Source: a virus | DNA: 64,000 nucleotides | Virus record (IMG/VR): IMGVR_UViG_3300035666_000007 | Location: 34,035 to 98,034 of that record | Reading direction: 5' to 3' (one strand) | Shown: piece by piece, positions 9,324 through 24,502 of the stretch | Layout: each line of letters opens with the position of its first letter | Position numbering within the stretch: position 1 is the stretch's first letter | Position numbers and translations under genes: made by a program | Notes under the pieces: generated by a model | Database searches by the model: none | The model's input: the letters and a program-made list of their open reading frames with translations, nothing else | What the model was told of the DNA's origin: nothing

Positions 9324-9451
9324 CTGACTGGTTCAATAGATAAAAGCAGCGTGTGAACTCCTTAAGTGTACGTGGGACCAATGGTCCTGTCAAGTGATCA
9401 ATCTTGTACTACGTCCAGTAGTCGCAAGTGTCACACTACTCATAAGCGTTT

Positions 9452-10463: not shown

Positions 10464-10968
10464 TGGTTATCCCTACTTCAGCAAAACGCAAACAGTCAAT
10501 AGATTTGCGTTATGCAAGGAGTCCTTGCTGCATGAAAATGGCATCATTCTTAGATTCAAGAAGATTTACGGAAGTCTGCGCGATATTGAGCTTTGCGCAC
10601 TTACCGAGTTTGACTCGATTGAAGAATTATCCGATAGGTACGAAAGACTGAATTCGCTTGGATACGGAGGCGAATTTTTTAAGCCAGATACGGTTTCGTC
10701 ACCAGAAGGAGGTCTATATCCATTTCTGAGAGTGAGAGGCAGGAAAAGGTATGAATTTATAGATTCTGGCTGTATTTGGATTGGCACAAAATTTGAGTAT
10801 CCGCGTGTGTTCGTGGATAATGAAATCGCCAACTGGTTCTGTCCATACTCTCCTGGCGGCGTTGTTCGCAGGGAGCCGTTTTTGCCATACGCAAAAGCTA
10901 TACAAATAATGCCGCGACTGCTGAATAGGAACAGGTATGCGGATCTCGATATTGATGGATTCATTTAG
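10417..10968 (+). CDS. hypothetical protein
   Basis: 183 aa; overlaps the previous ORF by 47 bp. Confidence 0.55.
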   Translation: MSSIAQRNFHVRLGPSGYPYFSKTQTVNRFALCKESLLHENGIILRFKKIYGSLRDIELCALTEFDSIEELSDRYERLNSLGYGGEFFKPDTVSSPEGGLYPFLRVRGRKRYEFIDSGCIWIGTKFEYPRVFVDNEIANWFCPYSPGGVVRREPFLPYAKAIQIMPRLLNRNRYADLDIDGFI

Positions 10969-11055
10969 CTCTTTGGAGCTTGTGAGTGGCCAGCAGCGGG
11001 CGATGGTTCCGAGGGATTGCCGATACCGCCGACTCTCCGCCCTTGCGGAAGGCGT

Positions 11056-11104
11056 AAAATTACTTTTGTATTTCCTTGACAGGCGGGGCTATTAGTGTTA
11101 CTAT
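11056..11104 (+). promoter_or_regulatory. early sigma70-type promoter P1
   Basis: UP-like AAAATTACTTTTGTATTTCC, TTGACA 11076-81, 17 bp, TG-T-TACTAT. Confidence 0.85.
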
Positions 11105-11132
11105 TAAATAGTAAATCAGCTCATCCAGCTAA

Positions 11133-11576
11133 ATGAATCAAGTGGTTGCACCTTATTCGTTTCAGGAAACAATCAAGATTGAACCTCGCAATAAAACCCT
11201 GCATGAGCAAATGTGCTTTATTGCTGACGAAGTTGTTCGCCATAACTTTTCAGACGTGGCTGTTCATGACGCAAGGATTCTGCGTCGCATGAAGCGAGGG
11301 GAAGTGAGGCTTTGGATCGTTAGCGAGCTTGGCAGTCAGTTTTTGCCAATGTATTGCCGCTTGACCGAAGTCGCTCGACAAGGCGATTACGAGTATGTGT
11401 TGTCGGCAGTCGAGGTAACAATTATGCGCCTTCTTCAGAGTGACCCGTTGAGCATGGCGCGTCAAAAGCAGTTTTTTGATACGGCAAGATTTTATTTTGT
11501 CACCAAAGGCGTTGGCGCTTGCGATGGTTCGATTGAATCTGCTAGCTTTTGTGACGTTGTCAACCTCGTGCGCTGA
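11133..11576 (+). CDS. early hypothetical protein
   Basis: 147 aa, first gene after P1. Confidence 0.7.
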   Translation: MNQVVAPYSFQETIKIEPRNKTLHEQMCFIADEVVRHNFSDVAVHDARILRRMKRGEVRLWIVSELGSQFLPMYCRLTEVARQGDYEYVLSAVEVTIMRLLQSDPLSMARQKQFFDTARFYFVTKGVGACDGSIESASFCDVVNLVR

Positions 11577-11639
11577 GGCGGCGGAGGCTTTCTTCTGAAC
11601 CGCCAGACAGGTTTTTGCAGTGTTAGTTTACCTTGAATC

Positions 11640-11939
11640 ATGAAAACTCCAGAGCTTTATGTTTATGAGCTGCAGCTGCTTCTTTATTCCCTTCAACTTG
11701 ATTCCAGCATAATTGAGCAAAAAACGCTAAAAGATCTGAGAAGATCGGAAAGGTGGGCTTTGCTTTGTTTCTGGAGAAGGCGAAGCATCGTGATGGCGGC
11801 TGCAATCAGAGCGGAAGCTGCCATGCAATCGCTGAAAGCGATAGCCGAGCTGCGAGATAAACTCCTGGAAAGCACAGGGGTTGACGAGGACATGCGCCCG
11901 ATCACTTTCAAACAAATGCTGAAATTCAATGACAAATGA
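11640..11939 (+). CDS. early hypothetical protein
   Basis: 99 aa. Confidence 0.6.
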   Translation: MKTPELYVYELQLLLYSLQLDSSIIEQKTLKDLRRSERWALLCFWRRRSIVMAAAIRAEAAMQSLKAIAELRDKLLESTGVDEDMRPITFKQMLKFNDK

Positions 11940-12258
11940 ACAATTGCTGATTGAAGAGTGCAGCAAGTTTGCTCTTTACATTGCAAACAAAGATGCAAAA
12001 ACATGGAATGATCTTTGTCGTGACCTGACAATTATCTGGAAGAAAAACTTAAACGATGAAAAGATTTTCGACTTTCTAGCCTTTGATCGCTGCCACAGGA
12101 CTGTTGGCGGAATGTCTGGTAAATACCTCCATTCCTGCTGCCCAGCAGAGTTGAAGAATTTGTTTTACCGAAACAATCGTGCCGTGATTGCGTTGACTTC
12201 GCAAGAGATCATGTTCAGGATCAAGGACGAGCTTAAGATTGGCAATTATTACGAATGA
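11929..12258 (+). CDS. early hypothetical protein
   Basis: 109 aa. Confidence 0.65.
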   Translation: MTNEQLLIEECSKFALYIANKDAKTWNDLCRDLTIIWKKNLNDEKIFDFLAFDRCHRTVGGMSGKYLHSCCPAELKNLFYRNNRAVIALTSQEIMFRIKDELKIGNYYE

Positions 12259-12683
12259 AATCACCCACAACAGCCCCAGTCGTTTGCATTGACAATCCAA
12301 TTCTTCGGTATATGACGGAAGCCTTGTTGTTTTCGTCTATCGTCGAGGATCAGTCGCTCAGCAAGAATTACAGCATCTGCGATATTGACCAAGGCTGCTT
12401 AAGCAGGCTGTATGCAGATTTTCAGCGGTTCATTGATAGATGTGAGTCGGAGATTACGGCAGCAATCGGGGGCGACTGGGAAAGTCTTGAAGCCTTTTAT
12501 CTTGGCATCCATCAGGAAGGATGCGTTGAAAGAGATTTTATTTATACCAGAAACCATGACGGAAGTGGATTTTGGGATACGGGTCGATGGGATCCTCGGG
12601 TTTCGCAGATTCTCTCCAACGCGGCGCATCGCTTTCCTCAGATTGAGTGCTTTGTAGGCGATGACAAAAAAATTTACTTTTGA
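12255..12683 (+). CDS. conserved early phage protein
   Basis: DFIYTRNHDGSGFWD motif (DFxxTRNxxGxGFWD family). Confidence 0.75.
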   Translation: MKSPTTAPVVCIDNPILRYMTEALLFSSIVEDQSLSKNYSICDIDQGCLSRLYADFQRFIDRCESEITAAIGGDWESLEAFYLGIHQEGCVERDFIYTRNHDGSGFWDTGRWDPRVSQILSNAAHRFPQIECFVGDDKKIYF

Positions 12684-12722
12684 TTGCGCCTAGTGCCGCC
12701 TTCTTGACCTTGCCTTAAGGCG

Positions 12723-12771
12723 GAAATTAGTTTTGTATTTCCTTGACAGCTGGCACCATTGGTGCTAATAT
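12723..12771 (+). promoter_or_regulatory. early promoter P2
   Basis: GAAATTAGTTTTGTATTTCC, TTGACA 12743-48, 17 bp, TG-C-TAATAT. Confidence 0.85.
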
Positions 12772-12830
12772 TGTAAATGCTGGGGAGTAACCCGCTCTCC
12801 TCGCCGATCACTTTTATTCATTCCAGAACC

Positions 12831-13229
12831 ATGGATTACGTCATGCCCGCACTTGTGGATCCGCGCCCACTTGATCCACCCGAAGAGAATTGGCCTGAAG
12901 CTCAGTCAGAGTGTATTGTTGACGGGCTTCATGGTATTTACGTTCCTCAGCAATTCTGTCAACGATACGAGAAAATTGATCGTATCAGTCAAGGGGACTG
13001 GGACAATTGCCTTGCCGGTCCAGACAACGAAAGCTACTGGGATTCATGGGATCAGATACTGAGCGACTGGACTTTTGAAGAAGCCGATGGCAATGGTGGA
13101 GTCTGGAAGATTTCCATTAAGCAAGATGGAGACCTGTTTCAGTGTCGAGAGTTCTTGCGTGCGGAAAAGCCGGACAGCTCTGATCCGGCTCTAGCTTCTT
13201 CGTCAGACGAAGAAACGCTCAGCTGCTGA
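12831..13229 (+). CDS. acidic conserved early phage protein
   Basis: GIYVPQQF...GPDNESYWDSWD...QDGDLF; ATG 12831 lies after the promoter leader. Confidence 0.75.
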   Translation: MDYVMPALVDPRPLDPPEENWPEAQSECIVDGLHGIYVPQQFCQRYEKIDRISQGDWDNCLAGPDNESYWDSWDQILSDWTFEEADGNGGVWKISIKQDGDLFQCREFLRAEKPDSSDPALASSSDEETLSC

Positions 13230-13285
13230 TACAGGCTCTTTCCCTTTAAGTGATTCCCCCCTTAAGCGATTCTTCCCCCCCACCA

Positions 13286-13594
13286 ATGAAAACGATCAAG
13301 GCCGCACTGATTGCCACGCTGGCATTTTCTTCGACCACGCTCTTTTCTGCACGCGCACTTGCTGGTCCCGTATGGGCTGACAGCGTTGCGCGTTCCCATT
13401 GCGAATATCTCGCGATGGGAATTGGCTGGAAAGAGTCAATGGACATGGCGTTCAGCGATAACTCCCACTGGGCGTCCGAAATCTCATCGGCTGGCAAAAA
13501 CTCAAGCAGGATTATTTTGTTTTCTATTTTCAATCGCTGCTTGGAAATGAACAACGAAGCCTTCAAGGTCTACCAAGGTAAATCTGTCATTTGA
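13286..13594 (+). CDS. putative secreted protein
   Basis: MKTIKAALIATLAF...ALA signal peptide; two Cys. Confidence 0.65.
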   Translation: MKTIKAALIATLAFSSTTLFSARALAGPVWADSVARSHCEYLAMGIGWKESMDMAFSDNSHWASEISSAGKNSSRIILFSIFNRCLEMNNEAFKVYQGKSVI

Positions 13595-13599
13595 CTATT

Positions 13600-13896
13600 A
13601 TGCCCCTTAGAAATACTGTCATTGCCTATTCACGGTTGAATGGTAGCAATCGTCAGCTTGGTTCGCTTGAAAAAGTTGAAGCCTTGAGGGATGAGCTGCA
13701 GTCTGTTCTTGCGGAAGATCAGCGGCAGCATGTAATGGATGAAGAATTGCTGGGGCTAAGCGATGCAATTGATGAATTTTGCAGCATCGTTGATGCCCAT
13801 GTGAACTTCGATCGAACACCTCATTTTTTGTATGATAACGATGGAGGTGAGCCAGGCGTTGGCGTGCGCAATGCAGCAGAGCGGTTAATTTCTTAA
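13600..13896 (+). CDS. acidic hypothetical protein
   Basis: 98 aa, LYDNDGGEP. Confidence 0.6.
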   Translation: MPLRNTVIAYSRLNGSNRQLGSLEKVEALRDELQSVLAEDQRQHVMDEELLGLSDAIDEFCSIVDAHVNFDRTPHFLYDNDGGEPGVGVRNAAERLIS

Positions 13897-13921
13897 AAAT
13901 TGTTCTTACTTGCTTTCAGCT

Positions 13922-14074
13922 ATGAATTCAAATGCTTCCCTGATTTTACTTGCGCTTGGCCTTCTTGTTTTATCCGCTGAAACCCTTATGCTTAGGCGAG
14001 ATGTTAAGCGCCTGACTGGGCGTCTTGATCGTGTCAAGCGATCATTCCCTTTCCGCTCCATGCCGAACAAGTAA
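13922..14074 (+). CDS. 50-aa membrane-anchored peptide (below the ORF-track cutoff)
   Basis: MNSNASLILLALGLLVLSAETLMLRR...; fills the gap between neighbours. Confidence 0.55.
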   Translation: MNSNASLILLALGLLVLSAETLMLRRDVKRLTGRLDRVKRSFPFRSMPNK

Positions 14075-14076
14075 AG

Positions 14077-14277
14077 ATGGACAAAAGTAGGAAGATCAGA
14101 ATTCTCTTGATGTCCCTCTCGTATATGTATAAGTATGGGGAGGCCTTTGTTGATCTGCTTAAGGATAGCTCTCAAGAGGAAAGCGCGAAAGCGTGGAAAA
14201 TCTTGAGAGAGCAAATCAAGGCAGTGCATTCCGAGCTGAAAGAAAAGCTCGATGGCGAGGCCAGGGCGCAGCCGTAG
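14077..14277 (+). CDS. hypothetical protein
   Basis: 66 aa. Confidence 0.55.
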   Translation: MDKSRKIRILLMSLSYMYKYGEAFVDLLKDSSQEESAKAWKILREQIKAVHSELKEKLDGEARAQP

Positions 14278-14433
14278 ATTGCGCTGAGACGCAGGCAGGG
14301 GCGGCTCCAAAGCGCCTCGGGGCAGGATTGGATATGGACAAGCCGTTTTTCGATTTGGCGGCTTGTGACGGCCTCACGGAGCACGCTTCTCTGCCGCAGT
14401 TGCGGAGTTCAATTTTCAACGTGTGAACAATCT

Positions 14434-14688
14434 ATGACAACAAAAAGCACTTCGCTTAGGATTGCGAGGATCACGGGATACTCTCGCAGGTTTCGGCTGC
14501 ATGGATACAAGAGCAGATATGTCAAGACGAAAAGCGGCGCCTGCATTTGTTCTCTTTGCTGCGAAAGTGACATCGAGAGATTTGCACTTGATGATTCCTG
14601 GCTAGTCGTCAGGGATGGAGTGAACAAGAGGGATCCATATTTGTTCTGCGACAATTGCCTAACAAGAATTGAAATTTTCCAACCTTAG
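14434..14688 (+). CDS. zinc-finger protein
   Basis: CSLC...LFCDNC. Confidence 0.6.
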   Translation: MTTKSTSLRIARITGYSRRFRLHGYKSRYVKTKSGACICSLCCESDIERFALDDSWLVVRDGVNKRDPYLFCDNCLTRIEIFQP

Positions 14689-14706
14689 GCACGGTTTAGC
14701 AGCGCA

Positions 14707-14755
14707 AAAATTAGTATCAGATAAGCTTGACAGCAGGCTAAATATATGAGATACT
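14707..14755 (+). promoter_or_regulatory. early promoter P3
   Basis: AAAATTAGTATCAGATAAGC, TTGACA 14727-32, 17 bp, TG-A-GATACT. Confidence 0.8.
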
Positions 14756-14805
14756 AAAGGTGTCGGTGAGCCGTGTGCTCGCTGGCGCCCCATCGCATTA
14801 GACGG

Positions 14806-15093
14806 ATGAACATCAATCAGGTAAGCAGTTTTAGGATTCAGACATCAGCCGACGATCTCGTTCGCATCTTTTGCCGCAATAATTTTGCGACAAGTGCAAA
14901 GGAGGAATTTGTCTTTGTGTGCCAAAATCGCAAAGGCGAGGAAAAGTATAAATTTTTTATCCTCGAATCAACGGCTGAGCTTTCATTGAGCAATGCGCTC
15001 AAGCTGCAAGAAAAGAATTCCGATCTTGTCCGTGTCGAAGTTACCAAATTGGAGACTGGCACTTCGTTCAATTACCCCCGTCCTTTTGTTTGA
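14806..15093 (+). CDS. early hypothetical protein
   Basis: 95 aa after the P3 leader hairpin. Confidence 0.6.
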   Translation: MNINQVSSFRIQTSADDLVRIFCRNNFATSAKEEFVFVCQNRKGEEKYKFFILESTAELSLSNALKLQEKNSDLVRVEVTKLETGTSFNYPRPFV

Positions 15094-15094
15094 T

Positions 15095-15346
15095 ATGGCT
15101 GACTATTGCGTCGTCACTCCTTACGGGTTTCCTGTGCTGGGAACAAAGGCAGAGATTATTGATCGCCTTTGCCATCCTAGATTTGACAACAGCATGAGGT
15201 TGATTTTCAAGTTTCCCGGCCATCAAGAGGTTGTCGCCCACAGTTACTCAAATGAGTTTTCTGCTCTTGAGGCGGCAAGCGATGCTGTCCATGTTTTATG
15301 GGCGAAATTGCCGGAGTATGGCTACAGAATCTACAAGGCTGTTTAG
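15095..15346 (+). CDS. early hypothetical protein
   Basis: 83 aa from ATG 15095. Confidence 0.6.
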   Translation: MADYCVVTPYGFPVLGTKAEIIDRLCHPRFDNSMRLIFKFPGHQEVVAHSYSNEFSALEAASDAVHVLWAKLPEYGYRIYKAV

Positions 15347-15386
15347 GCACTTTGCCTGATTTACTTGTTCTTTTTAATTTCCCGAC

Positions 15387-15566
15387 ATGAATCAAGATCA
15401 AAAAATTCAATTGGTTGAGAACATGCGTCGCTACGGCGGAAATTTTGTTAGCAAGCTTGCAGATGCGATGATTGCAGCAGATCCGCAAAACTTTCAGCGC
15501 ATTTGTGATGCTTTCCCTGAAATTGTCAAACGGTTTGAAAGACCATGGATTGCCATCAATGGCTAA
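15387..15566 (+). CDS. 59-aa conserved phage protein (below the ORF-track cutoff)
   Basis: MRRYGGNFVSKLADAMIAADPQNFQRICDAFPE motif. Confidence 0.75.
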   Translation: MNQDQKIQLVENMRRYGGNFVSKLADAMIAADPQNFQRICDAFPEIVKRFERPWIAING

Positions 15567-15594
15567 TTCTTAATTCGTTCAATCAGTCAAAACA

Positions 15595-15936
15595 ATGAGC
15601 ACTTTTACTTCCGAGAAGTCTCTTCTGGTTAGATCCTTTGTCGAAGGAGCCGTTCGAGACTTTGAGAACACGATTCAACTGCTAGCAGATCAGTATCGAA
15701 GCTCTTGCCTAATTCCGTTTTGCAAAAAGTACGGTGTTGAGTTTATCAGAGAAGCGAATGAGTATCAATTCTGCGGCAGCCGTCCGCCCTTTCTTTTCCG
15801 TGTTAAGCCGGAGTCAATAGACATTCCCGATTATCAAGAAATCTGCGCAGTTCTTAATCTTGAGATCAGCGCGCTGGGGCTCCCTCCGGTTGCGTTCTTG
15901 ACGTTTTTCGACAGCGTCAAAGCCGAACATCTTTGA
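15595..15936 (+). CDS. early hypothetical protein
   Basis: 113 aa. Confidence 0.6.
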   Translation: MSTFTSEKSLLVRSFVEGAVRDFENTIQLLADQYRSSCLIPFCKKYGVEFIREANEYQFCGSRPPFLFRVKPESIDIPDYQEICAVLNLEISALGLPPVAFLTFFDSVKAEHL

Positions 15937-15973
15937 ATAGCTTTTTAGTTTTTTTCTTTATCCAATCAGAACA

Positions 15974-16762
15974 ATGCTTAGTTTCCTTAAGTGTCAGCAG
16001 GCTATCGAATCTCAACTCAAGCGAGGCTTTGACAAGAAAAAGCTTGGACACAATACCTATCTTCGCAAGCTTACTCAGAACAGGTACGCGATTACGCTGC
16101 ACCAAACAGATATAATTGTAATCTCTGAGCGGAACGGTGAAACAATTTACTGTCTAAACAGTGGCGGCTACCGAACGGTTACAACCAAGGACAGGCTTAA
16201 TTCGCTGTCGCCTGCACGCATCTATCAGAAGCGCGGGGTTTGGTATCTGAGTGAAAACAACGACACGAAGAATGATATTCCCTACTTCGACTTTGTCGAA
16301 GTTGACGCCCGTGGCATGGTTGTCAATAAAGACTCGGTTCCGGCTGATCTTATCGAAAAGAGAAAATTACTTGATCGCCTGATCAATGAATACATTCGCG
16401 GCTTTGCAAAGGACGCTGTTGAAAACGGACTTCGCAAGCCCGAGACCGGGGACTGCTTGATGTGCCGTCTTTATCTTGACAACCAAGACAAAGATGACAT
16501 GGGGCACGTTTGTTGCCATTTGTACGAAAAATATTACACTCGCATCTTTTTGTATTACTGCCTGAAGATGCATGGATACAGCAATCCTGGATTTACCTGG
16601 GCTCTTATTGCCAAGCACTGCGAGAATGGGCGAGATGAAATGCTAAAGCGCGAGCTGCGTTATGGCTTCGCAAGAATAAAAGAGCGACTGCTTAATGTCT
16701 TTGACATTTCCGAATACAAAGCCGCTCAAGAGCGCTTGAGGGAGCCTGAACTTGTTGATTGA
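15974..16762 (+). CDS. conserved early phage protein
   Basis: LHQTDII...LNSGGYRTVTTKDRLN...IYQKRGVWY; C-terminal GDCLMC...H..CH. Confidence 0.75.
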   Translation: MLSFLKCQQAIESQLKRGFDKKKLGHNTYLRKLTQNRYAITLHQTDIIVISERNGETIYCLNSGGYRTVTTKDRLNSLSPARIYQKRGVWYLSENNDTKNDIPYFDFVEVDARGMVVNKDSVPADLIEKRKLLDRLINEYIRGFAKDAVENGLRKPETGDCLMCRLYLDNQDKDDMGHVCCHLYEKYYTRIFLYYCLKMHGYSNPGFTWALIAKHCENGRDEMLKRELRYGFARIKERLLNVFDISEYKAAQERLREPELVD

Positions 16763-16764
16763 TA

Positions 16765-16813
16765 AAAATTAAATTTGCTTTTGCTTGACAGCAGGTAAAA
16801 TATATGGTACTAT
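16765..16813 (+). promoter_or_regulatory. early promoter P4
   Basis: AAAATTAAATTTGCTTTTGC, TTGACA 16785-90, 17 bp, TG-G-TACTAT. Confidence 0.88.
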
Positions 16814-16873
16814 TAAGTATGCAAGCGCAGCCTGTGTGCCGCGCTTGTTTTTGTTCTTTTGCTCCTTAGATCA

Positions 16874-17062
16874 ATGGCAACTTACAAGACAATTCTTTTT
16901 CGGTTTGATGGGCCGGACAAGGTTCTTGACCGTGGGCTAACGCTTAAGAAAGCGAAAGAGATTTGCAGCGATCCTGATACGTCTTCTCGTACTTGCGAGA
17001 AAGCTGCAAACTTCAAGGCCTGGGGCGACGGTCCTTGGTTTGTCGGATACGAAAAAGAATAG
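16874..17062 (+). CDS. conserved small phage protein
   Basis: GLTLKKAKEICSDPDTSSRT...GPWFVGY. Confidence 0.75.
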   Translation: MATYKTILFRFDGPDKVLDRGLTLKKAKEICSDPDTSSRTCEKAANFKAWGDGPWFVGYEKE

Positions 17063-17096
17063 CTTGTCTTGATCGCAGTTTTTACAAATTAAATCA

Positions 17097-17501
17097 ATGA
17101 AAGCATTACGAATTGCCGAGCGCTTAAACATTTCTCTGTTTGACGCAAACATCGCCTTGAGCATTATTCGAGGCAGGACCAACCCAGAAAACTTCGCAAG
17201 GCGTTTCCCCCGCACTTACGGTTGGATCAATCAGTGCTATCACAAGCCACGAGCAAGCGAAATCGCACTTGAAGCCTTGAATGAATTGCTCGGTACGCAT
17301 GGAGTTGAAGTAATTCGCGACGAGCGATTTCATTGCCCCTTCGACAGTTACCTTGGAGACATTGTTGCGAGCTACCTAAACACCGGGGATGCTTACGCAA
17401 CAACGATTCTCTTGGATCACATTTCCAGCAAGTGGCGACTGATTAGTTGGGGCGATTTTGTGGAATCGCTTGACGCAAGGGCGGAGGAAGAAGATGTCTA
17501 G
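17097..17501 (+). CDS. conserved early phage protein
   Basis: HGVE...YLNTGDAYATT...SWGDFVE. Confidence 0.75.
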   Translation: MKALRIAERLNISLFDANIALSIIRGRTNPENFARRFPRTYGWINQCYHKPRASEIALEALNELLGTHGVEVIRDERFHCPFDSYLGDIVASYLNTGDAYATTILLDHISSKWRLISWGDFVESLDARAEEEDV

Positions 17502-17685
17502 TGTTGTTTTTGGTACGCTTAATGCCGCGAGATCAGAAAAGGCAAAACGTAAATATCCGCACGAAATCCTGAAGACAGAAAGACACGGGGACTCATGCCT
17601 TTATTCAGATGGCACAATTGTTCCCGCCCATCGCTGTACTTGCGGTGGCACCAAGCAGTTCATTTATTCACTGAGGCTTAAATGA
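17494..17685 (+). CDS. hypothetical protein
   Basis: 63 aa with Cys/His residues. Confidence 0.5.
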   Translation: MSSVVFGTLNAARSEKAKRKYPHEILKTERHGDSCLYSDGTIVPAHRCTCGGTKQFIYSLRLK

Positions 17686-18017
17686 CCAAGACTACCGCGA
17701 TCACGATTTCCGGTTCTTTTACTATTGACGCGCTTGCGGGCGTAAAAAGCTTTGAGCATCGGAAGATTTTGGACGGCGATCAGGTGCTAATCTATTTTGA
17801 AAATGGATACGGCGCAAGTGTCGCAAGGCATTCTTATTCGTATGGCGGCCTTGAGGGATTTTACGAGCTTGCCGTAATTACCAAGCCTGAGAGCGAGGGC
17901 GAGGAGTTCACAATAGACCACGATTCTGTAACTGGCTGGCTTAGCACGGCAGAAGTTATCAATAAACTCACGGAGATTCAAGCTTTCCAACCCATCAGGC
18001 AAAACACCGATGTCTAA
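17682..18017 (+). CDS. conserved phage protein
   Basis: FENGYGASV...SYGG..G.YELAVI...VTGWL. Confidence 0.8.
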   Translation: MTKTTAITISGSFTIDALAGVKSFEHRKILDGDQVLIYFENGYGASVARHSYSYGGLEGFYELAVITKPESEGEEFTIDHDSVTGWLSTAEVINKLTEIQAFQPIRQNTDV

Positions 18018-18279
18018 TTTTCAAGAATGTCCACGCGCTTACGCAATTGAGCTGGTCGAAGCGGGTCGCTGCGATGCAAAGCAGTTATTGCTTACTTGCC
18101 TAAGCCTTATGTCCGCACGCGATGTCAGGGACGCGCTTGATGACAACGAATTGTCGCCTCGCTTTTTGGATTCAGTCGATGACGGCGTGGATTCGTTCAG
18201 CGAGGATGAGATCGGCCCGGAGGAGCGCAATGCTTGCGATCACTACAACGAACGCTACACTTATCCTTGTAACGACTAA
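18010..18279 (+). CDS. acidic hypothetical protein
   Basis: 89 aa, LMSARDVRDALDDNEL. Confidence 0.65.
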   Translation: MSNFQECPRAYAIELVEAGRCDAKQLLLTCLSLMSARDVRDALDDNELSPRFLDSVDDGVDSFSEDEIGPEERNACDHYNERYTYPCND

Positions 18280-18284
18280 TCCTC

Positions 18285-18539
18285 ATGAATTACTATCGCT
18301 TGATCGCCGAAGCCGTTAAGACTCACAAACGGTTGATTCAGTACCAGGACGCCGGAGTTGTGGATGCGCCCCTGCAGGAGAAAGCGGACAGGATTCATGA
18401 AATCTTTTACACAAAGGCTCCGTCCGGTTTCTTTCAGGAATACGTTTTAGCGGTCCACGCTCGCACCGGCAGATACACATGGCTTTGCGGCAGGGATGGA
18501 GTCAATGAATTCCTGAAGCGCCTTGGGGTTAACTGGTAG
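18285..18539 (+). CDS. hypothetical protein, paralog of 23973-24233
   Basis: AVK.HK.LI...FY.K.P...F..YV.AVH..TGR..WL.GR.GV. Confidence 0.75.
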   Translation: MNYYRLIAEAVKTHKRLIQYQDAGVVDAPLQEKADRIHEIFYTKAPSGFFQEYVLAVHARTGRYTWLCGRDGVNEFLKRLGVNW

Positions 18540-18572
18540 ATTTTGATTCTGTTAAATTCACACATTAGAACA

Positions 18573-19256
18573 ATGCCACAAACCAATCAAGGCGAAAAAA
18601 GACAAAGCTTTTCCTGCCTAATTCCTTTTGACGGCTTTTATTGCACACACCACGCTCAAAGGATTGACGACGAAGAGGAGGCGTTGTTCAGGTTTGATGA
18701 CGGAGAGATTCGATACCCGGATCTTTATGGGTCATTCTGGGAAAAAATTGATTACTTGTCTGTATTCAGGAAATACGCCAAATGCTACTTGGAGTTGGTT
18801 GGCTCAATTCTTGAGGTCGGCTTCACTCTTGAGGAGCTGCTTTGTCCAAGGGAGTACAATTTTTCAACAGACAGAATTTTTGCATCTATCAGTAGGGCGG
18901 ATTTTTGCAAGCTCTTAATCAAGGTTCGCGGAAAAAGCTTTCGAGAGACCGCGCTGGATATGTTTGCCAGTCGCCCAGGCTTCGCTAGCTTTTACTCGCC
19001 CAAGATTTCGAGTTGGGCGCCTATTGCGGATTGGGATCACAACCAGGCCGGTGCAGTTGTTGCGGCTGCCTTGAAGAGAGAGCTGGCGGAGTCGCGGATC
19101 GATCTTGATAGCCAATTAGATGAATTCATTGATTCATCAAGCATCCAGGACTGGCTGTGCAATGCGGTCGATGATAGCGGTATTCGCGTTCTCAGGATAA
19201 ATGATTATCTCAGGCTGCGTGATGAAAGAGTAAGCGCTAAAATCAGTTGTAGATAA
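18573..19256 (+). CDS. conserved acidic early phage protein
   Basis: PFDGFY...PREYNFSTDRIF...SRPGFASFY...WDHNQ. Confidence 0.75.
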   Translation: MPQTNQGEKRQSFSCLIPFDGFYCTHHAQRIDDEEEALFRFDDGEIRYPDLYGSFWEKIDYLSVFRKYAKCYLELVGSILEVGFTLEELLCPREYNFSTDRIFASISRADFCKLLIKVRGKSFRETALDMFASRPGFASFYSPKISSWAPIADWDHNQAGAVVAAALKRELAESRIDLDSQLDEFIDSSSIQDWLCNAVDDSGIRVLRINDYLRLRDERVSAKISCR

Positions 19257-19287
19257 CCTTGACAGGCAAGCCATTGTATGGCATAAT
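19239..19287 (+). promoter_or_regulatory. early promoter P5
   Basis: AAAATCAGTTGTAGATAACC, TTGACA 19259-64, 17 bp, TG-G-CATAAT. Confidence 0.88.
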
Positions 19288-19357
19288 TAAGTGATGCGAG
19301 GGCCGGTGTCGGCAAAGCCTCGCTTTTTTGTTCTTTGTTTTTCTTTTCACTAGATCA

Positions 19358-19765
19358 ATGCAAACACAAACCCTGACACGTTCTTGCACCTTAAGCTTTG
19401 AAGAGCTGCAAAAGAATGAATACCTCTTCAAGCGAATTAACACTTTATGCGGATTGATGGAATACAAGCTTCACAAGCCGCAACTCGGGAGAGCTGAGTT
19501 TGATTATTACGATTTCACAAACGGAACAAATGCTTGGCGCTTCGACGGTTTTATTACCGATGCGCAATGGAAGACAATCGCGCAACTGTGCATCAGCTAC
19601 AAGGCCGACATTGCAGAGGTAATTCGCGGCTTTGTTTTCGAGACCGAAAAGATCTCTGTTGTTGATGGCGAGCATAGTTCGACTTATTTTGTTCCAACTT
19701 CGATGTGCGGATACATTAAAAATATTTATTTCTTGATCGAGGAGGATGGACGATCTAATACTTGA
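19358..19765 (+). CDS. early hypothetical protein
   Basis: 135 aa from AGATCA-ATG. Confidence 0.7.
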   Translation: MQTQTLTRSCTLSFEELQKNEYLFKRINTLCGLMEYKLHKPQLGRAEFDYYDFTNGTNAWRFDGFITDAQWKTIAQLCISYKADIAEVIRGFVFETEKISVVDGEHSSTYFVPTSMCGYIKNIYFLIEEDGRSNT

Positions 19766-19799
19766 TTCGTAAATTTCGGCCACTTTATCCGCAAAAGCC

Positions 19800-20270
19800 A
19801 TGACTCTTTTCGACCTGCCTTCAAGTAATAGGATTAGCACCAGCCAAGTTCGGCTGGCGCTCATATATCGGAAAAGCAGCATTATGAAAATATACAAACA
19901 GTTTCCTCTCGTTGTTGGGGAAGACTTTTACAACTCAGCAATTGCAGAAATTGACAGCTTTCTGCTTTATATTGACGGGAGCAAGCAGATTTCAGTTATC
20001 AAAGGTGAAGATCCCGTCGCAACCGCAATTGAATTTACGATTTCCGAACTGCAAGACAAAATCGAGGGACTGCCCGTCGATGGATACTTCGGACGGGACA
20101 AGGACGAGCTTTGGTACTATTTTATTTGCAATGATCAAAAAGTCGTAGAGGACAAATACGAAACGCTTGACATGATGCTTGACGGGCAATGGCGAGCGAT
20201 TAGCTCAATTGGTACCCTCAACGAACTTTCTCTTGTCGGACAAGAGTTGCGTTACTTAGTTCTCGCCTAA
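19800..20270 (+). CDS. early hypothetical protein
   Basis: 156 aa; the true start could be a downstream ATG. Confidence 0.6.
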   Translation: MTLFDLPSSNRISTSQVRLALIYRKSSIMKIYKQFPLVVGEDFYNSAIAEIDSFLLYIDGSKQISVIKGEDPVATAIEFTISELQDKIEGLPVDGYFGRDKDELWYYFICNDQKVVEDKYETLDMMLDGQWRAISSIGTLNELSLVGQELRYLVLA

Positions 20271-20307
20271 CAGTTTCTTGTTTTTGCAATTTTTATCTAT
20301 CAAGCCA

Positions 20308-20724
20308 ATGCGCAAAACTTTAACTTTTCACAAATACGGCATGTCTTTCGAGGTCAAGATTTTTCTTGATGACGACAATCAAAAATTGTCAGTCTTTGGT
20401 ACTTTGTTTGATCAAAATGGCGATAGTGTTGCGAGCGGACAGGTGTCCGAAGTTGCTCGACTGTTTGCGCCGGCTCAGCTTTGTGACACTTGGGAGCGTT
20501 GGCATTTGAATACGATGCGCGCTGGGACTCCGGCGCAAGAGGAACTGATTAAGTTTGAGAGCAAGCGTCGCAGGGCTCTGGATCTTTCGCAAATGAGTTA
20601 ATGGCTCGCCTGTGATTTTCTTGAGGGGCACAACTTGCTCCTGGATGATGGATACAAATATGGCTGCTCTTGGCTAAAAGAGGAACTGCCACAAGATGTG
20701 ATTGACTATATTTATTCGCTTTAG
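20308..20724 (+). pseudogene. early gene interrupted by an in-frame TAA (20599-20601)
   Basis: WERWHLNTMRAGTPAQ...QMS*WLACDFL...DGYKYGCSWLKEELPQDVI continues in the same frame. Confidence 0.75.
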
Positions 20725-20803
20725 CTTGGTTGGCGAAAATTAGACTCGCAATAAAAAGCGAATACGGCTCTCGCTCTTTTCAAAAGTTCTTCGTCGCACA
20801 ACA

Positions 20804-21211
20804 ATGACTGCAATCACTCAGGATCAAATCAATCAAGAAATTTTTCAGTGGCAGGATCTTGGTCGTGGATTTCATGGGGGCAGGTTTGACTCGAAAGAAA
20901 TTTGCGTTTTTCACGACTCATCTGAAATATGCAACCTAGATTTTTCCGTTCGTCAATACACTTCAGACGAGGAGGATTGCTTTGGTGCAAACTATTCGCG
21001 CTGGCGCATTATTGTTTTCATCAAACAACGCAGACATGAACCCAGAACAGACGCGGAAGAGTTCGCGATTGAGTTTCCAGCAGAAGTGGGAATAAGTTAT
21101 TCAGAAAAGGAGTTTGCTATGGAGTTCTGTGAGTATGTACTTGCAAGTTTCTTGAAATATCAAAACTTATCGCGCTTGCCGTACGTTGACTTGCACCCAA
21201 GCGAAATCTGA
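20804..21211 (+). CDS. early hypothetical protein
   Basis: 135 aa. Confidence 0.65.
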   Translation: MTAITQDQINQEIFQWQDLGRGFHGGRFDSKEICVFHDSSEICNLDFSVRQYTSDEEDCFGANYSRWRIIVFIKQRRHEPRTDAEEFAIEFPAEVGISYSEKEFAMEFCEYVLASFLKYQNLSRLPYVDLHPSEI

Positions 21212-21218
21212 CATAGCT

Positions 21219-21267
21219 GAAATTAGTATTGCATAAGCTTGACATCCGGCGCTATATGTGTCATAAT
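21219..21267 (+). promoter_or_regulatory. early promoter P6
   Basis: GAAATTAGTATTGCATAAGC, TTGACA 21239-44, 17 bp, TG-T-CATAAT. Confidence 0.88.
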
Positions 21268-21324
21268 TAAGTATGCGAGCGCAAGGTGTGTCTCGTTTTG
21301 TTCTTTCGTTTTCACATCAGATCC

Positions 21325-21513
21325 ATGGCCATCAAGAAAAATCTTAAAGCGGCTTCCACCGGTTTTGCCGCGTCGGGTGCCGTTGTCGTTGTTGGCACGC
21401 TTCTTGCTTTTGTCATCGCCTCGCTGATTTCGGAAGATCAACGAGCCTATAACAATTGTTTAGTGAAGCACAAGTCGGTAGATTACTGCCGCCTGATCGT
21501 GAGTGGCAGATAG
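21325..21513 (+). CDS. small membrane protein
   Basis: one transmembrane segment followed by C-x8-C. Confidence 0.65.
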   Translation: MAIKKNLKAASTGFAASGAVVVVGTLLAFVIASLISEDQRAYNNCLVKHKSVDYCRLIVSGR

Positions 21514-21548
21514 CTTCATTGATCTTTTGTTCACAAGCAGCTTTTTCC

Positions 21549-21833
21549 ATGACTATTTCCTTGCATCGTCGCACTTCAAATGGTGTTTATCATTTCATGG
21601 GCGACTATTTAACAGACTATTTTGAGTTTGCCTTCAAGGACTGCGTCAATCAACATACCGGCAGTTATGTTTGGTTGTCTACTGATGAAAGCATTTCGCA
21701 TTCTCATTGCCTGGTCGCTTACGACCCGGATCACGACAGATACGAAGATGTCGATGACTGGGACATTCTGAAGATGGTTCAAGATGCCAGGAATCGCGGA
21801 GACTCTTCCCAGCCTTCCTTGCCGTTTTCCTGA
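21549..21833 (+). CDS. early hypothetical protein
   Basis: 94 aa from ATG 21549. Confidence 0.6.
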   Translation: MTISLHRRTSNGVYHFMGDYLTDYFEFAFKDCVNQHTGSYVWLSTDESISHSHCLVAYDPDHDRYEDVDDWDILKMVQDARNRGDSSQPSLPFS

Positions 21834-21873
21834 CCTGTGAATCGCGAAGCTTAACCTTACACACACCAGATCC

Positions 21874-22425
21874 ATGAACGCATCACAACTTTCTGGCAAA
21901 CTTGCAAAGATTGACACGCAAAGCCTTTGCAGTACCGGCTGCGTTTACCTTGAGTTTGCGGGTAAGCAGTCTGAATATCGCATTACTTTTAAGCTGTCTT
22001 CTGATCCCTACACGAATGTTTTCGATTTTGATTGTTACGGTAGGCTTGAATGGGCGACGTTATGGCCGCAAGATTTTGATGGCGGAGCGCGAATCATCCA
22101 AAGAGATCGGCGCGGCAACTTTCTTTGGTGGCAGCCGTACAAAGACGAAGACGGAAAGATCTACGATTCCGATCGCGACCGTTCCATCGTTCGCGATCTT
22201 GTTGAGTATGGTTTTTATCAGATAGAGCTAAAGTTTTATGGACCGCTGACCTCTGTATTTGGCACTCGCGTCGGCATTATCAAAGAAAGTACGCTTTGCG
22301 GCCTGGACAGCGACAGGCTAAGCGAAGCGGCAGTGCTTGTTCCTGATATGATTAACGATTGGGTTTTTGAACTTAACGCAGCTGACAAATCAACTTCGGA
22401 GCTTGTTGATGGCACTGCCAGCTGA
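21874..22425 (+). CDS. early hypothetical protein
   Basis: 183 aa, AGATCC-ATG start context. Confidence 0.7.
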   Translation: MNASQLSGKLAKIDTQSLCSTGCVYLEFAGKQSEYRITFKLSSDPYTNVFDFDCYGRLEWATLWPQDFDGGARIIQRDRRGNFLWWQPYKDEDGKIYDSDRDRSIVRDLVEYGFYQIELKFYGPLTSVFGTRVGIIKESTLCGLDSDRLSEAAVLVPDMINDWVFELNAADKSTSELVDGTAS

Positions 22426-22726
22426 CAAGCGCTCCCAGCAGGCTTTTTGGGTGATCGGAGCCCTTGAGCGACTGCAGGGACTTGGTTTCATTTCCGATGT
22501 TCAGCTTTATGTCGCACCTGGAGAAATAGATACATGGCAGAGTGTTGACGAAAGAAGGCGTGAAATTGTGGACGACAATTCTGTTCGGAGCTTGACTCGT
22601 TTTATTTGTGCTCACAGCGGCATGGAAGACAGGGAGAGTATAAATAAAGTAGTTCTTGCCGTCTTTCACTTTAGGGATCATCGGGAAGACATGGTTAAAT
22701 TTGCGATGAAAAGAACACTTAGCTAA
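22409..22726 (+). CDS. early hypothetical protein
   Basis: WVIGALERLQGLG motif. Confidence 0.6.
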   Translation: MALPADKRSQQAFWVIGALERLQGLGFISDVQLYVAPGEIDTWQSVDERRREIVDDNSVRSLTRFICAHSGMEDRESINKVVLAVFHFRDHREDMVKFAMKRTLS

Positions 22727-22774
22727 AAATCTCTTTTGCATAAGCTTGACAGGCAAAGCGTTATATGGCATAAT
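22726..22774 (+). promoter_or_regulatory. early promoter P7
   Basis: AAAATCTCTTTTGCATAAGC, TTGACA 22746-51, 17 bp, TG-G-CATAAT. Confidence 0.88.
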
Positions 22775-22899
22775 TAAGTCATGCGAGAGCCGCCCTGCGC
22801 GGTTTTCGCGCTTTTTACGCCTTTGATTTTTACTTCAATGATCTAAGTTTTTTTAGTTGAAGTGTAGTTTCACAAGCCGTATTCACCTCAGATCTTTCG

Positions 22900-23313
22900 A
22901 TGAAACTTTCAACAGTTTTGAATCACCAGCGCTGCTTGACAGGGCAACTGGAAAGCATTTACTTCAACGCAAGGCTGTGTCGTCCGAAACACAGTCAGAT
23001 ACTTGCTGAAACGCAAAAGCTTTTTACAAGTGAGACGTTTCGGTGATTGCCGCACTGGTCGCGTTCTGTGATTTTGGCAAGGCGCGAAACGCTCTCGAAA
23101 GAAATTTATCAGTATTTGCGTTTTGCGTTTATTGGTGCCGATGGTGTGCCGAGAGGGTTAAATGATTTGACAGCGGAAGACCGTCAGGCGGTTTTTGATG
23201 GCAAAATCACAGGGCATCATTATTGGATGAGAGAGAAATCAAGATCGGCTTGGATTGAGAATGGAGAACACAAAGAGCTAATCGTAAAAGAAATCACCAC
23301 GGAGTTCTACTGA
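22900..23313 (+). pseudogene. early gene interrupted by an in-frame TGA (23044-23046)
   Basis: ATG 22900 opens 48 codons (MKLSTVLN...ETFR), then TGA, then the same frame continues LPHWSR... to 23313. Confidence 0.65.
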
Positions 23314-23774
23314 TGAACGAATTACTCGCCCTTCAGGTTAAAAACCGCAATCAATTGAATGCAGTAGCAAACGAGCTGCAAAACAAATTTGGAGATCTTT
23401 TTGCTACGCTGATTGGCAAGAAAGCGATCAAGGTTACGCCCTATCGGACGTTTACCGCAAAGATCAAGGATCAGGTTGCGCAGATTGTTGATTTGCCTGA
23501 TGGATTTTCGATCGTTTACGATTGCGGTGGCTTGACTCGTGTATTTGCGAGTTTGACGAAAAGATTTGATTTCGTTGGTCGCACGTACTATTTGCGTACG
23601 AGCATTTTCGTTTGCCCTCTTGACAGAGAAAATGTCGCCCCTTTTGAGATTCTTCCCACCGTCAGGAGAACTGACTTTACCGTGGAAGAGATTGCTTCGG
23701 CAAGAGAAAGAATTGCCGAACTCGATCGAGAACTTAGCCAGCTGAAAGGGCTGGTTAATGACTTCTATCCCTGA
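23313..23774 (+). CDS. early hypothetical protein with a C-terminal coiled coil
   Basis: 153 aa. Confidence 0.7.
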   Translation: MNELLALQVKNRNQLNAVANELQNKFGDLFATLIGKKAIKVTPYRTFTAKIKDQVAQIVDLPDGFSIVYDCGGLTRVFASLTKRFDFVGRTYYLRTSIFVCPLDRENVAPFEILPTVRRTDFTVEEIASARERIAELDRELSQLKGLVNDFYP

Positions 23775-23781
23775 TTTAGCC

Positions 23782-23970
23782 ATGCATCACATTTGCTTGC
23801 TCCAGGATGGCGAGATGAACAGCCTCGCCGAATTCAACAGTTACGAAGACGCGGGTGATCATTACGATCAATTCTGCAACAAGCATCCAAACGGCTGGGT
23901 TGAAATTGTTTCAGATGCAGATTTCTTGATCACAAAAGCCGGAGCAAAACTTCAGGAGCAACCTTTCTGA
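23782..23970 (+). CDS. small acidic protein
   Basis: FNSYEDA...KHPNGWVEIV. Confidence 0.65.
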   Translation: MHHICLLQDGEMNSLAEFNSYEDAGDHYDQFCNKHPNGWVEIVSDADFLITKAGAKLQEQPF

Positions 23971-23972
23971 AA

Positions 23973-24233
23973 ATGAACGACCAAAAGTTAATTGACAAAG
24001 CTGTAAAAATTCATAAACAGCTGATCGAGAATGCAGGCAAGGATCCTGCTTTGATTGATCTTGCGCTTGAACGCAGAGCCAGCAAGTTGCATCATTTCTT
24101 TTACGAAAAAGTTCCGGCTCGTATTTTTCACAAATACGTCAAAGCGGTTCACGAATCCACCGGTCGCCCCAATTGGCTCGCCGGTAGGCAAGGCGTTCCT
24201 TACGGTTTCTGCCCCGACGATCGTTTGCCCTGA
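23973..24233 (+). CDS. hypothetical protein, paralog of 18285-18539
   Basis: aligned by eye. Confidence 0.75.
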   Translation: MNDQKLIDKAVKIHKQLIENAGKDPALIDLALERRASKLHHFFYEKVPARIFHKYVKAVHESTGRPNWLAGRQGVPYGFCPDDRLP

Positions 24234-24502
24234 ATCAATTCAAATACTTACAGCAGTGGTGTGGCTTTGTCTGCATCACTGCTTTTTTGTTTGTTGAGCA
24301 AGGTTGCCCCCTTCATCCCGTCCCGCACTTGCCGATCCACAGCAGGCCGCTGAGAGCCGCTGGAAGGCCTTTGCGGATGTCGATGCCCCTAGGAGACGCT
24401 GAAGCGTCGAGAGGCGTCTAGATGAGGCGTTTAGCGCTGTCTCCGTTGGTTTGAGATTGAGCCTTGATCGGTTAGCGTGCGAGCGTTCGAGATTCGCAAC
24501 GG

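Follow-up and report, generated by a model that had tools for sequence, protein, structure and literature searches.

What does a stem-loop do for a phage message when it lies at the very place where transcription is predicted to begin? The question arises in a 64,000-nt stretch of DNA (hereafter the window), the right 64 kb of IMG/VR virus record IMGVR_UViG_3300035666_000007 (98,034 bp), which belongs to an uncultured freshwater phage and displays direct terminal repeats. Between 9.9 and 24.3 kb, the window shows a lower G+C content (0.45-0.47) and densely packed small open reading frames (ORFs) on the plus strand, hereafter the early-right region. Seven homologous sigma70-type promoters (P1 to P7) span ~12 kb of it, and six of the seven early gene blocks open with a promoter and an immediate hairpin, P1 being the exception. 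On sequence grounds, the explanation that we favour, and to which we give about an even chance of being right, is that the hairpin is a 5'-terminal protective stem-loop, borne by a cassette resembling the PeSLs of T4-type phages (see below) and combined with leaky termination in its U-rich copies.

The promoters were searched with a strict pattern (TTGACA-N17-NANNNT), which occurred at seven plus-strand sites of the window (11076, 12743, 14727, 16785, 19259, 21239 and 22746, i.e. within 11076-22774). All seven shared an A-rich UP-like upstream tract (AAAATTAG...), the TTGACA hexamer and a 17-nt spacer with the TG of an extended -10. Their -10 hexamers were TACTAT in P1 (11076-11104, TG present) and P4 (16785-16813), TAATAT in P2 (12743-12771), GATACT in P3 (14727-14755) and CATAAT in P5 (19259-19287, 11/12 consensus), P6 (21239-21267) and P7 (22746-22774). 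No further copy of the promoter cassette was found elsewhere in the 98-kb genome. A possible decayed eighth cassette was noticed in a 202-nt gap (20714-20782, plus strand), where TTGGTT, 17 nt and CAATAA are followed by a 5-bp hairpin (AGCGA/UCGCU) and CUUUUC, colinear with P6 and P7; it was rejected, its alignment score being no better than that of shuffled sequence.

Hairpins were located by RNAfold. The six stems named by the first-pass annotation of this region were all found where it had placed them, downstream of P2 to P7 and on the same strand, starting 5-8 nt after the -10 hexamer and with folding free energies (dG) ranging from -8.6 to -17.7 kcal/mol. The P2 stem-loop (12779-12804, -10.4 kcal/mol) has a GGGGAGU/GCUCUCC core, and that of P3 (14762-14786, -14.4 kcal/mol) comprises 10 bp, including three G-U pairs, with a CGUGU loop; extended to 14759-14789, the latter reaches -21.6 kcal/mol. 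Neither is followed by a U-run. In P4 (16821-16852, -14.6 kcal/mol), the stem GCAAGCGC/GCGCUUGU (hairpin 16821-16848) is followed by U4 and in P5 (19296-19329, -15.0 kcal/mol), the most terminator-like copy, GCGAGG/CCUCGC with an inner GCCG-GUGU-CGGC (hairpin 19296-19323) is followed by U6. P6 (21275-21299, -8.6 kcal/mol) displays a weak GCGAG/CUCGU stem-loop (hairpin 21275-21296) plus U3. The 11-bp stem-loop of P7 (22783-22816, -17.7 kcal/mol, z=-3.6) is followed by GC and then U5 (hairpin 22783-22809), and an alternative overlapping hairpin, GCGCG/CGCGC, adjoins this U5 directly. The GTGT apex described earlier for P3 to P6 was observed in P3, P4 and P5; in P6, GUGU lies inside the stem of the minimum-energy fold. 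The P1 cassette is a copy without 5' hairpin, the best one within its first 60 nt reaching only about -1.5 to -2.8 kcal/mol. Taken singly, 61-nt folds gave weak z-scores except for P7, and significance rests on position and recurrence.

Among 34 cassettes from this phage and four of its relatives (presented below), the best hairpin beside the -10 had a mean of -12.9 kcal/mol, against -6.0 in 200 random 60-nt windows taken from the same loci; values of -10 kcal/mol or lower were displayed by 82% of the cassettes and 17% of the random windows (Mann-Whitney p=4e-13). All cassettes are of common ancestry, so that cassette counts given here and below are not independent. The structure was also strand-specific: in a symmetric fold search, the sense strand beat the antisense strand in 36 of 44 cassettes (-13.2 versus -9.1 kcal/mol; Wilcoxon p=2e-6), and G-U pairs on the transcribed strand, to which the first-pass annotation had drawn attention, amounted to 68 of 378 pairs (18%). 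Taken together, the strong fold, the strand asymmetry and the G-U pairs argue that the structure acts in the transcript, as RNA.

Relatives were found in IMG/VR and JGI metagenomes with the 262-aa early protein encoded at 15974-16762, and they compose three diverged clades of uncultured phages. Clade A contains the window and L121 (58% amino-acid identity), clade B contains L119, L120 and L122 (about 41%), and clade C contains L272, L273, L280 and L285 (about 41%) plus L274 (33%). The layout, i.e. UP-like tract, TTGACA, 17 nt, -10 and then hairpin, was kept across all three, with the hairpin present in about 41 of 46 cassettes. Its position was conserved as well: the stem started 0-3 nt from position 6 after the -10 (predicted +1 to +3) in 41/41 cassettes from clades A (window, L121), B (L119, L120, L122) and C (L272, L285, L274). 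Stem sequences were GCGAG/CUCGC in clade A, GUGAC/GUCAC or AUGGC/GUCAU in clade B and GCAGGGG or AUGCGAGAGAGG in clade C. The earlier claim that pairing is kept while the stem sequence changes was thus borne out by these cross-clade stems, and likewise by a compensatory change between orthologous cassettes (GCGAG/CUCGC in P5 of the window versus GCAAG/CUUGC in L121-7876) and by covariation in clade B. In the clade-B alignment, 78% of the cells were paired versus 44-55% with the partner slid, and among 500 shuffles none reached the observed pairing level and one reached the covariation score.

This conservation did not extend to a sequence family. A covariance model built from clade B (R1), the kind of search that had been suggested earlier, recovered clade B only, with marginal matches to P6 of the window and to one L121 copy, which indicates that there is no cross-clade sequence family. 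One common structure was also sought for clade A and abandoned, since hairpin lengths differ and the MAFFT alignment cannot carry it. Rfam gave no match at gathering score in the window, and none at E<=1 in 10900-24400. Scanning IMG/VR with a generic promoter pattern brought up nothing but unrelated phages, and clade-specific UP/-35 pattern searches added near-duplicates and no new clades. In two distant relatives, L287 with Shine-Dalgarno (SD) leaders and L282 with leaderless genes, no hairpin was found (dG 0 to -5.9 kcal/mol). The loops were as variable as the stems: GUGC or AUGC in L121, GCAAG or GGGAGA in clade B and others in clade C, P2 and P7 having no GUGU either. The proposal of a switch read through the GUGU loop consequently loses its footing, since a loop that changes even in the closest relative as well as in the other clades leaves a conserved loop-reading factor unsupported.

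The early leaders themselves are U/C-rich, often contain UUCAC and display a YAGAnCnATG start context without purine-rich SD. Examples of this context are TAGATCAATG, CAGATCCATG and CAGAACAATG (16864-16876, 19348-19360, 21315-21327, 15964-15976 and 18563-18575), and its clade C counterpart is CAGAAAAAATG. Late genes were likewise devoid of SD, with start contexts of the AAAACAATG type. To judge from complementarity, the GAUC at -5 to -2 might base-pair with the same tetranucleotide located just 5' of the anti-SD in 16S rRNA.

How might a hairpin serve such messages? The cassette runs from the A-rich UP-like tract through a near-consensus sigma70 promoter with extended -10, the stem-loop and a U/C-rich SD-less leader to the start codon. 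With transcription predicted to start 6-7 nt after the -10, the stem-loop would occupy the extreme 5' end, 0-3 unpaired nucleotides being left ahead of it, and would deny 5'-end-dependent decay enzymes (pyrophosphohydrolase and RNase E, or RNase J) a single-stranded 5' end. This protection would matter because U-rich, presumably RNase E-prone leaders would lack the shield of an SD-bound ribosome. In P4 to P7, where a U-run adjoins the stem, the same hairpin should in addition be a leaky intrinsic terminator, affecting transcripts that read through from the preceding unit as well as a fraction of those initiated at the cassette itself. According to the literature, mRNA is stabilised, and its decay through RNase E blocked, when the 5' terminus is base-paired (PMC3997798 and its references 93-95), and the pyrophosphohydrolase RppH requires at least 2 unpaired 5' nucleotides (PMC3997798). 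The stems described here begin within about 0-4 nt of the 5' end, as expected of a stabilising stem-loop, if one counts from the start site that we infer from the promoter. Moreover, the hairpin is kept in copies devoid of a U-run, namely P2, P3 and the majority of clade C, where the stem is followed by tails like UCUCAAAC, UUCACAAA and GAAAAACU, and it co-occurs with SD-less, U-rich leaders, the distant relatives with SD leaders or leaderless genes being without it. It is because position is invariant and sequence and U-run are not that we read the hairpin as a 5'-terminal protective stem-loop. A 5'-end stabiliser had been named by the first-pass annotation as the simpler alternative, and it is the one that best fits the conservation pattern. 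No terminator was found upstream of any of the promoters P1 to P7, which suggests that the units are not otherwise insulated and that insulation is not a general need.

Several points weigh against protection as the main role. The decay-enzyme rule comes from the literature, and the decay machinery of the host may differ. Positional constancy could partly reflect inheritance instead of selection, given the common ancestry of the cassettes. The other points concern termination. A run of at least three U within 2 nt of the stem was observed in 26 of the 33 cassettes of clades A and B, and U right after the stem was mildly enriched (0.67 versus 0.57 in the rest of the leader; Fisher p=0.009, computed on copies that are not independent), so that some selection for termination is plausible. 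In vitro, Escherichia coli RNA polymerase (RNAP) on a T7A1 template with tR2 releasing at +38 displayed 33-39% termination, and 58% with NusA (PMC6978380); the only PeSL stem-loop tested was a strong terminator, lowering lacZ like rrnB T1 (PMC2839356).

These last observations are also the strength of the alternative that survives best, namely that hairpin and U-run are mainly a transcription terminator or attenuator, as was proposed for PeSL stem-loops. We consider it possible but rather unlikely. Such an element would halt upstream read-through and abort a sizeable share of its own transcripts at about +36 to +40; very strong promoters would thereby be damped and abundant tiny RNAs produced, with or without regulation. 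Termination at +38 by the E. coli enzyme at tR2 makes self-attenuation physically possible, and 42 terminators were reported within phage 5' untranslated regions (5'UTRs), most of them yielding short RNAs (PMC10914365). In P4, P5 and P7, the base of the stem is GC-rich and adjoined by U4-U6. The U-runs earlier ascribed to P4 to P7 do exist, even if U5 comes after GC in P7, but their resemblance to intrinsic terminators is uneven, being full in P5 and P7, large in P4, weak in P6 and nil in P2 and P3. In the same way, the short RNAs that had been predicted are physically possible at ~36-40 nt, but the U-run is not the conserved feature: P2 and P3 keep hairpin and position without it, as does most of clade C, where only 2/8 copies have a run of at least three U, and in the relatives the runs are mostly U3-4. 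U-richness is a general property of the leaders, since promoterless early-gene leaders are equally U-rich (11-13 T in 25 nt). A genuine terminator was available as reference in the same genome, at 24252-24289 (plus strand, -18.8 kcal/mol), directly 3' of the last small early gene, where it closes the early-right region before the terminase/RepL-like block. It displays the canonical intrinsic organization (13-bp uninterrupted stem, 6-nt loop and U6), whereas the apical parts of the cassette hairpins are mostly irregular, with 12-16-nt or internal loops. Finally, a pure terminator need not sit exactly at +1, and the PeSL stem-loop of RB49/phi1 occurs in five different positions.

Two alternative pairings were tried and rejected. 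In the first, the promoter spacer would pair with the 5' arm and be an anti-terminator for RNA reading through; it occurred in a few copies only and not systematically. The second, complementarity between loop and leader (GUGU versus CACA in leaders), was dropped, as no co-variation was observed in clade B. A more elaborate scheme can be conceived, in which each early promoter would be self-attenuating, with a ~36-40-nt hairpin RNA as default product, and elongation would need a factor engaging the nascent 5' end before the U-run, be it a ribosome on a 5'-terminal AUG/GUG or a Nus-type complex on GUUCUUU. We think it improbable; if true, early expression and the pool of tiny RNAs would be tied to the state of the host translation or elongation machinery.

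The Nus-type component of this scheme can also be taken on its own. The hairpin and the UGUUCUUU motif would then serve to load an elongation or antitermination complex, as in rrn leaders (5' hairpin, then boxA), lambda nut (boxA and boxB) or HK022 put, with RNAP rendered termination-resistant by a Nus factor of the host or a small protein of the phage bound there. The motif was observed after the hairpin at 16852-16859, 19329-19336 and 21299-21306 as well as in L121 cassettes, six clade-A copies in all. In these (P4, P5, P6 and three L121 copies), GUUCUUU after the stem corresponds to positions 1-7 of the boxA consensus GYUCUUUAANA, and in the rrn operons of B. subtilis a small 5' hairpin is directly followed by boxA (PMC13753749). 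This consensus is gamma-proteobacterial (10.1101/091223). Clade-B loops are moreover GNRA-like (GCAAG), and at 14434-14688 lies the gene of a small, conserved Cys-rich protein whose N-terminus is rich in Arg. The match stops short, however: boxA positions 8-11 (AANA) are unmatched in every copy, the GUUCUUU 7-mer shows no enrichment in the window (24 occurrences versus an expectation of 27.5) and other U-rich leaders carry it too. Clade B displays GUUCAC instead and clade C has no GUUCUUU-type motif. With loops that differ between clades, early proteins without informative family match and Rfam silent even at E<=1, complex loading appears an unlikely role for the hairpin.

Still less probable is that the transcripts open with a leaderless start codon, from which a ribosome would translate a mini-ORF through the hairpin, thus coupling translation to the SD-less downstream gene or preventing terminator formation. 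In 32/46 cassettes, representing all three clades, an ATG or GTG was observed 6-7 nt downstream of the -10, at the predicted +1. In the window, such codons lie at 12777, 16819, 19294, 21273 and 22781, and they were also encountered in L119-L122 and L272; they are the most conserved part of the transcript. Genuine genes of L282, including a homologue of ORF 15974-16762, start with ATG 7 nt after the -10 and hence are leaderless, and in several mini-ORFs (P3, P4, P5) the stop codon, 4 nt ahead of the gene's own start, is the TAG within TAGATCAATG. Yet the frame is not kept between orthologues, as illustrated by a one-base loop indel between L119-10795 and L120-10795 and by TAG in L119-12904 where L120-13107 has CAG. 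In-frame fusions (10 of about 38) are at chance expectation and the peptides are merely the translated hairpin and U-tract. A start codon 0-2 nt from a stable stem would be expected to have leaderless initiation blocked, and eight cassettes lack the ATG/GTG yet have the hairpin.

The inverted repeat might finally act as DNA, either as the operator of an early shut-off repressor over +1, a frequent operator location that the repeat indeed overlaps, or as homology for cassette recombination and gene shuffling, comparable to that mediated by PeSLs. Identity between cassettes amounts to 72-95% over about 100-130 bp, both inside one genome and from one genome to another, and of about 14 indels that distinguish L119 from L120, 7 have a cassette at an edge. 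We find an action as DNA hardly credible, as G-U pairing and the excess of sense over antisense folding are unexpected for a DNA palindrome, and arms spaced by a variable 12-17 nt suit a dimeric operator poorly and change by compensatory substitution rather than staying fixed. Since about one gene junction in four is taken up by a cassette, the association with breakpoints is not clearly above the junction-limited expectation. Independently of this question, several L119 versus L120 insertions or replacements start or stop exactly at cassette edges (e.g. L119 4828-6028, 16270-17413 and 17541-17747), and in one L119/L120 cassette pair identity reaches 95%, against about 81% in the flanks.

As to the genomic surroundings, the window encodes ThyX, the large terminase (TerL), a DUF4055 portal and tail-fibre genes. 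TerL gave a weak Terminase_3/6N match and is nearest to siphovirus terminases (36% identity), Synechococcus siphoviruses being tied with enterobacterial phages among its best matches, which is a weak hint as to the host. No tRNA gene, sought as a further hint, was found in the window; blastn against isolated phages gave no match and searches of early-region proteins in Pfam and PHROG gave no informative one. At the left border of the early region lies a divergent leftward promoter, TTGACA-17-TACACT (9365-9393, minus strand), which has no 5' hairpin and whose predicted transcript starts near UAAGGAG. The protein encoded at 14434-14688 (plus strand) is 84 aa long; its N-terminus is rich in Arg (RIARITGYSRRFRLH), and its C-terminal half is rich in Cys and ends in ...LFCDNC.... 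In clades A and B alike, this C-terminal motif is conserved immediately upstream of the cassette equivalent to P3. The protein has no family match and may bind nucleic acid. A scan of the early proteins for Arg-rich motifs gave several weak candidates and zero family matches.

The hairpins had been put forward as an undescribed regulatory system, a claim to which the literature is opposed: both PeSLs (PMC2839356, PMC4122927) and 5'UTR terminators giving abundant short RNAs (PMC10914365) are already published. Four known systems can be compared with the present cassette. The rrn leader (5' hairpin/boxB, then boxA) and lambda nut share with it the succession of promoter, small hairpin and U-rich motif starting with GYUCUUU; here, in contrast, boxA lacks its 3' half (AANA), clades B and C have not retained the motif, and no N-like protein was identified. 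Closer in one respect are the 5'UTR terminators of phages (Putzeys et al. 2024, PMC10914365; e.g. the 71-nt T102 of phiKZ), where a promoter runs nearly directly into a terminator-like hairpin and two fates, short RNA or full mRNA, are possible. Those published are 70-250 nt long, individually distinct and seen experimentally, whereas here a product of about 36-40 nt is predicted from a repeated cassette. Should the U-rich copies abort their own transcripts, the combination of strong promoters and tiny hairpin RNAs would amount to an inexpensive throttle or decoy integrated into the cassette.

The stabilising stem-loops of ompA, papA and synthetic messages (Emory, Bouvet and Belasco 1992, via PMC3997798) likewise consist of a hairpin a few nucleotides from the 5' end, with conservation of structure rather than sequence. 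They are found in single cellular genes and have measured effects on half-life, in contrast to a multi-copy phage cassette known from sequence and often provided with a U-run. If the 5'-terminal protective stem-loop is the right explanation, the phage would have a way to shield its SD-less, U-rich early messages, and the cassettes would offer compact, portable stabiliser parts.

The nearest parallel remains PeSLs, which were described in the T4-type phages RB49/phi1, T4/PST and KVP40/nt-1 (Arbiol 2010, PMC2839356; Comeau 2014, PMC4122927). They are repeated cassettes of hyperplastic regions, composed of an AT-rich tract, a strong sigma70-like promoter, a stem-loop and an SD with start codon, and they mediate shuffling of ORFans (PMC2839356, PMC4122927). 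Similarities are numerous: a repeated intergenic cassette of about 100 bp among small early genes, in many copies a few kb apart; an AT-rich tract, a near-consensus sigma70 promoter, a stem-loop with G-T pairs and the next start codon at the 3' end; and a location at the head of blocks of small genes. Indel edges often lie at cassettes here too, though not clearly more often than expected. Three differences are nevertheless apparent. PeSLs end in a Shine-Dalgarno sequence, which is absent here, where the leader is U-rich. The present phage is not T4-like, as seen from its 98-kb genome, direct terminal repeats and a TerL nearest to those of siphoviruses (36%). The PeSL stem-loop precedes the promoter, overlaps it or is contained in it (five positional classes) and is mostly outside the transcript of its own cassette, whereas the one described here is always at predicted +1 to +30. 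Promoter/stem-loop cassettes are thus extended beyond T4-type phages to an uncultured freshwater phage lineage, in which the stem-loop has moved onto the transcript and its position, not its sequence, is conserved.

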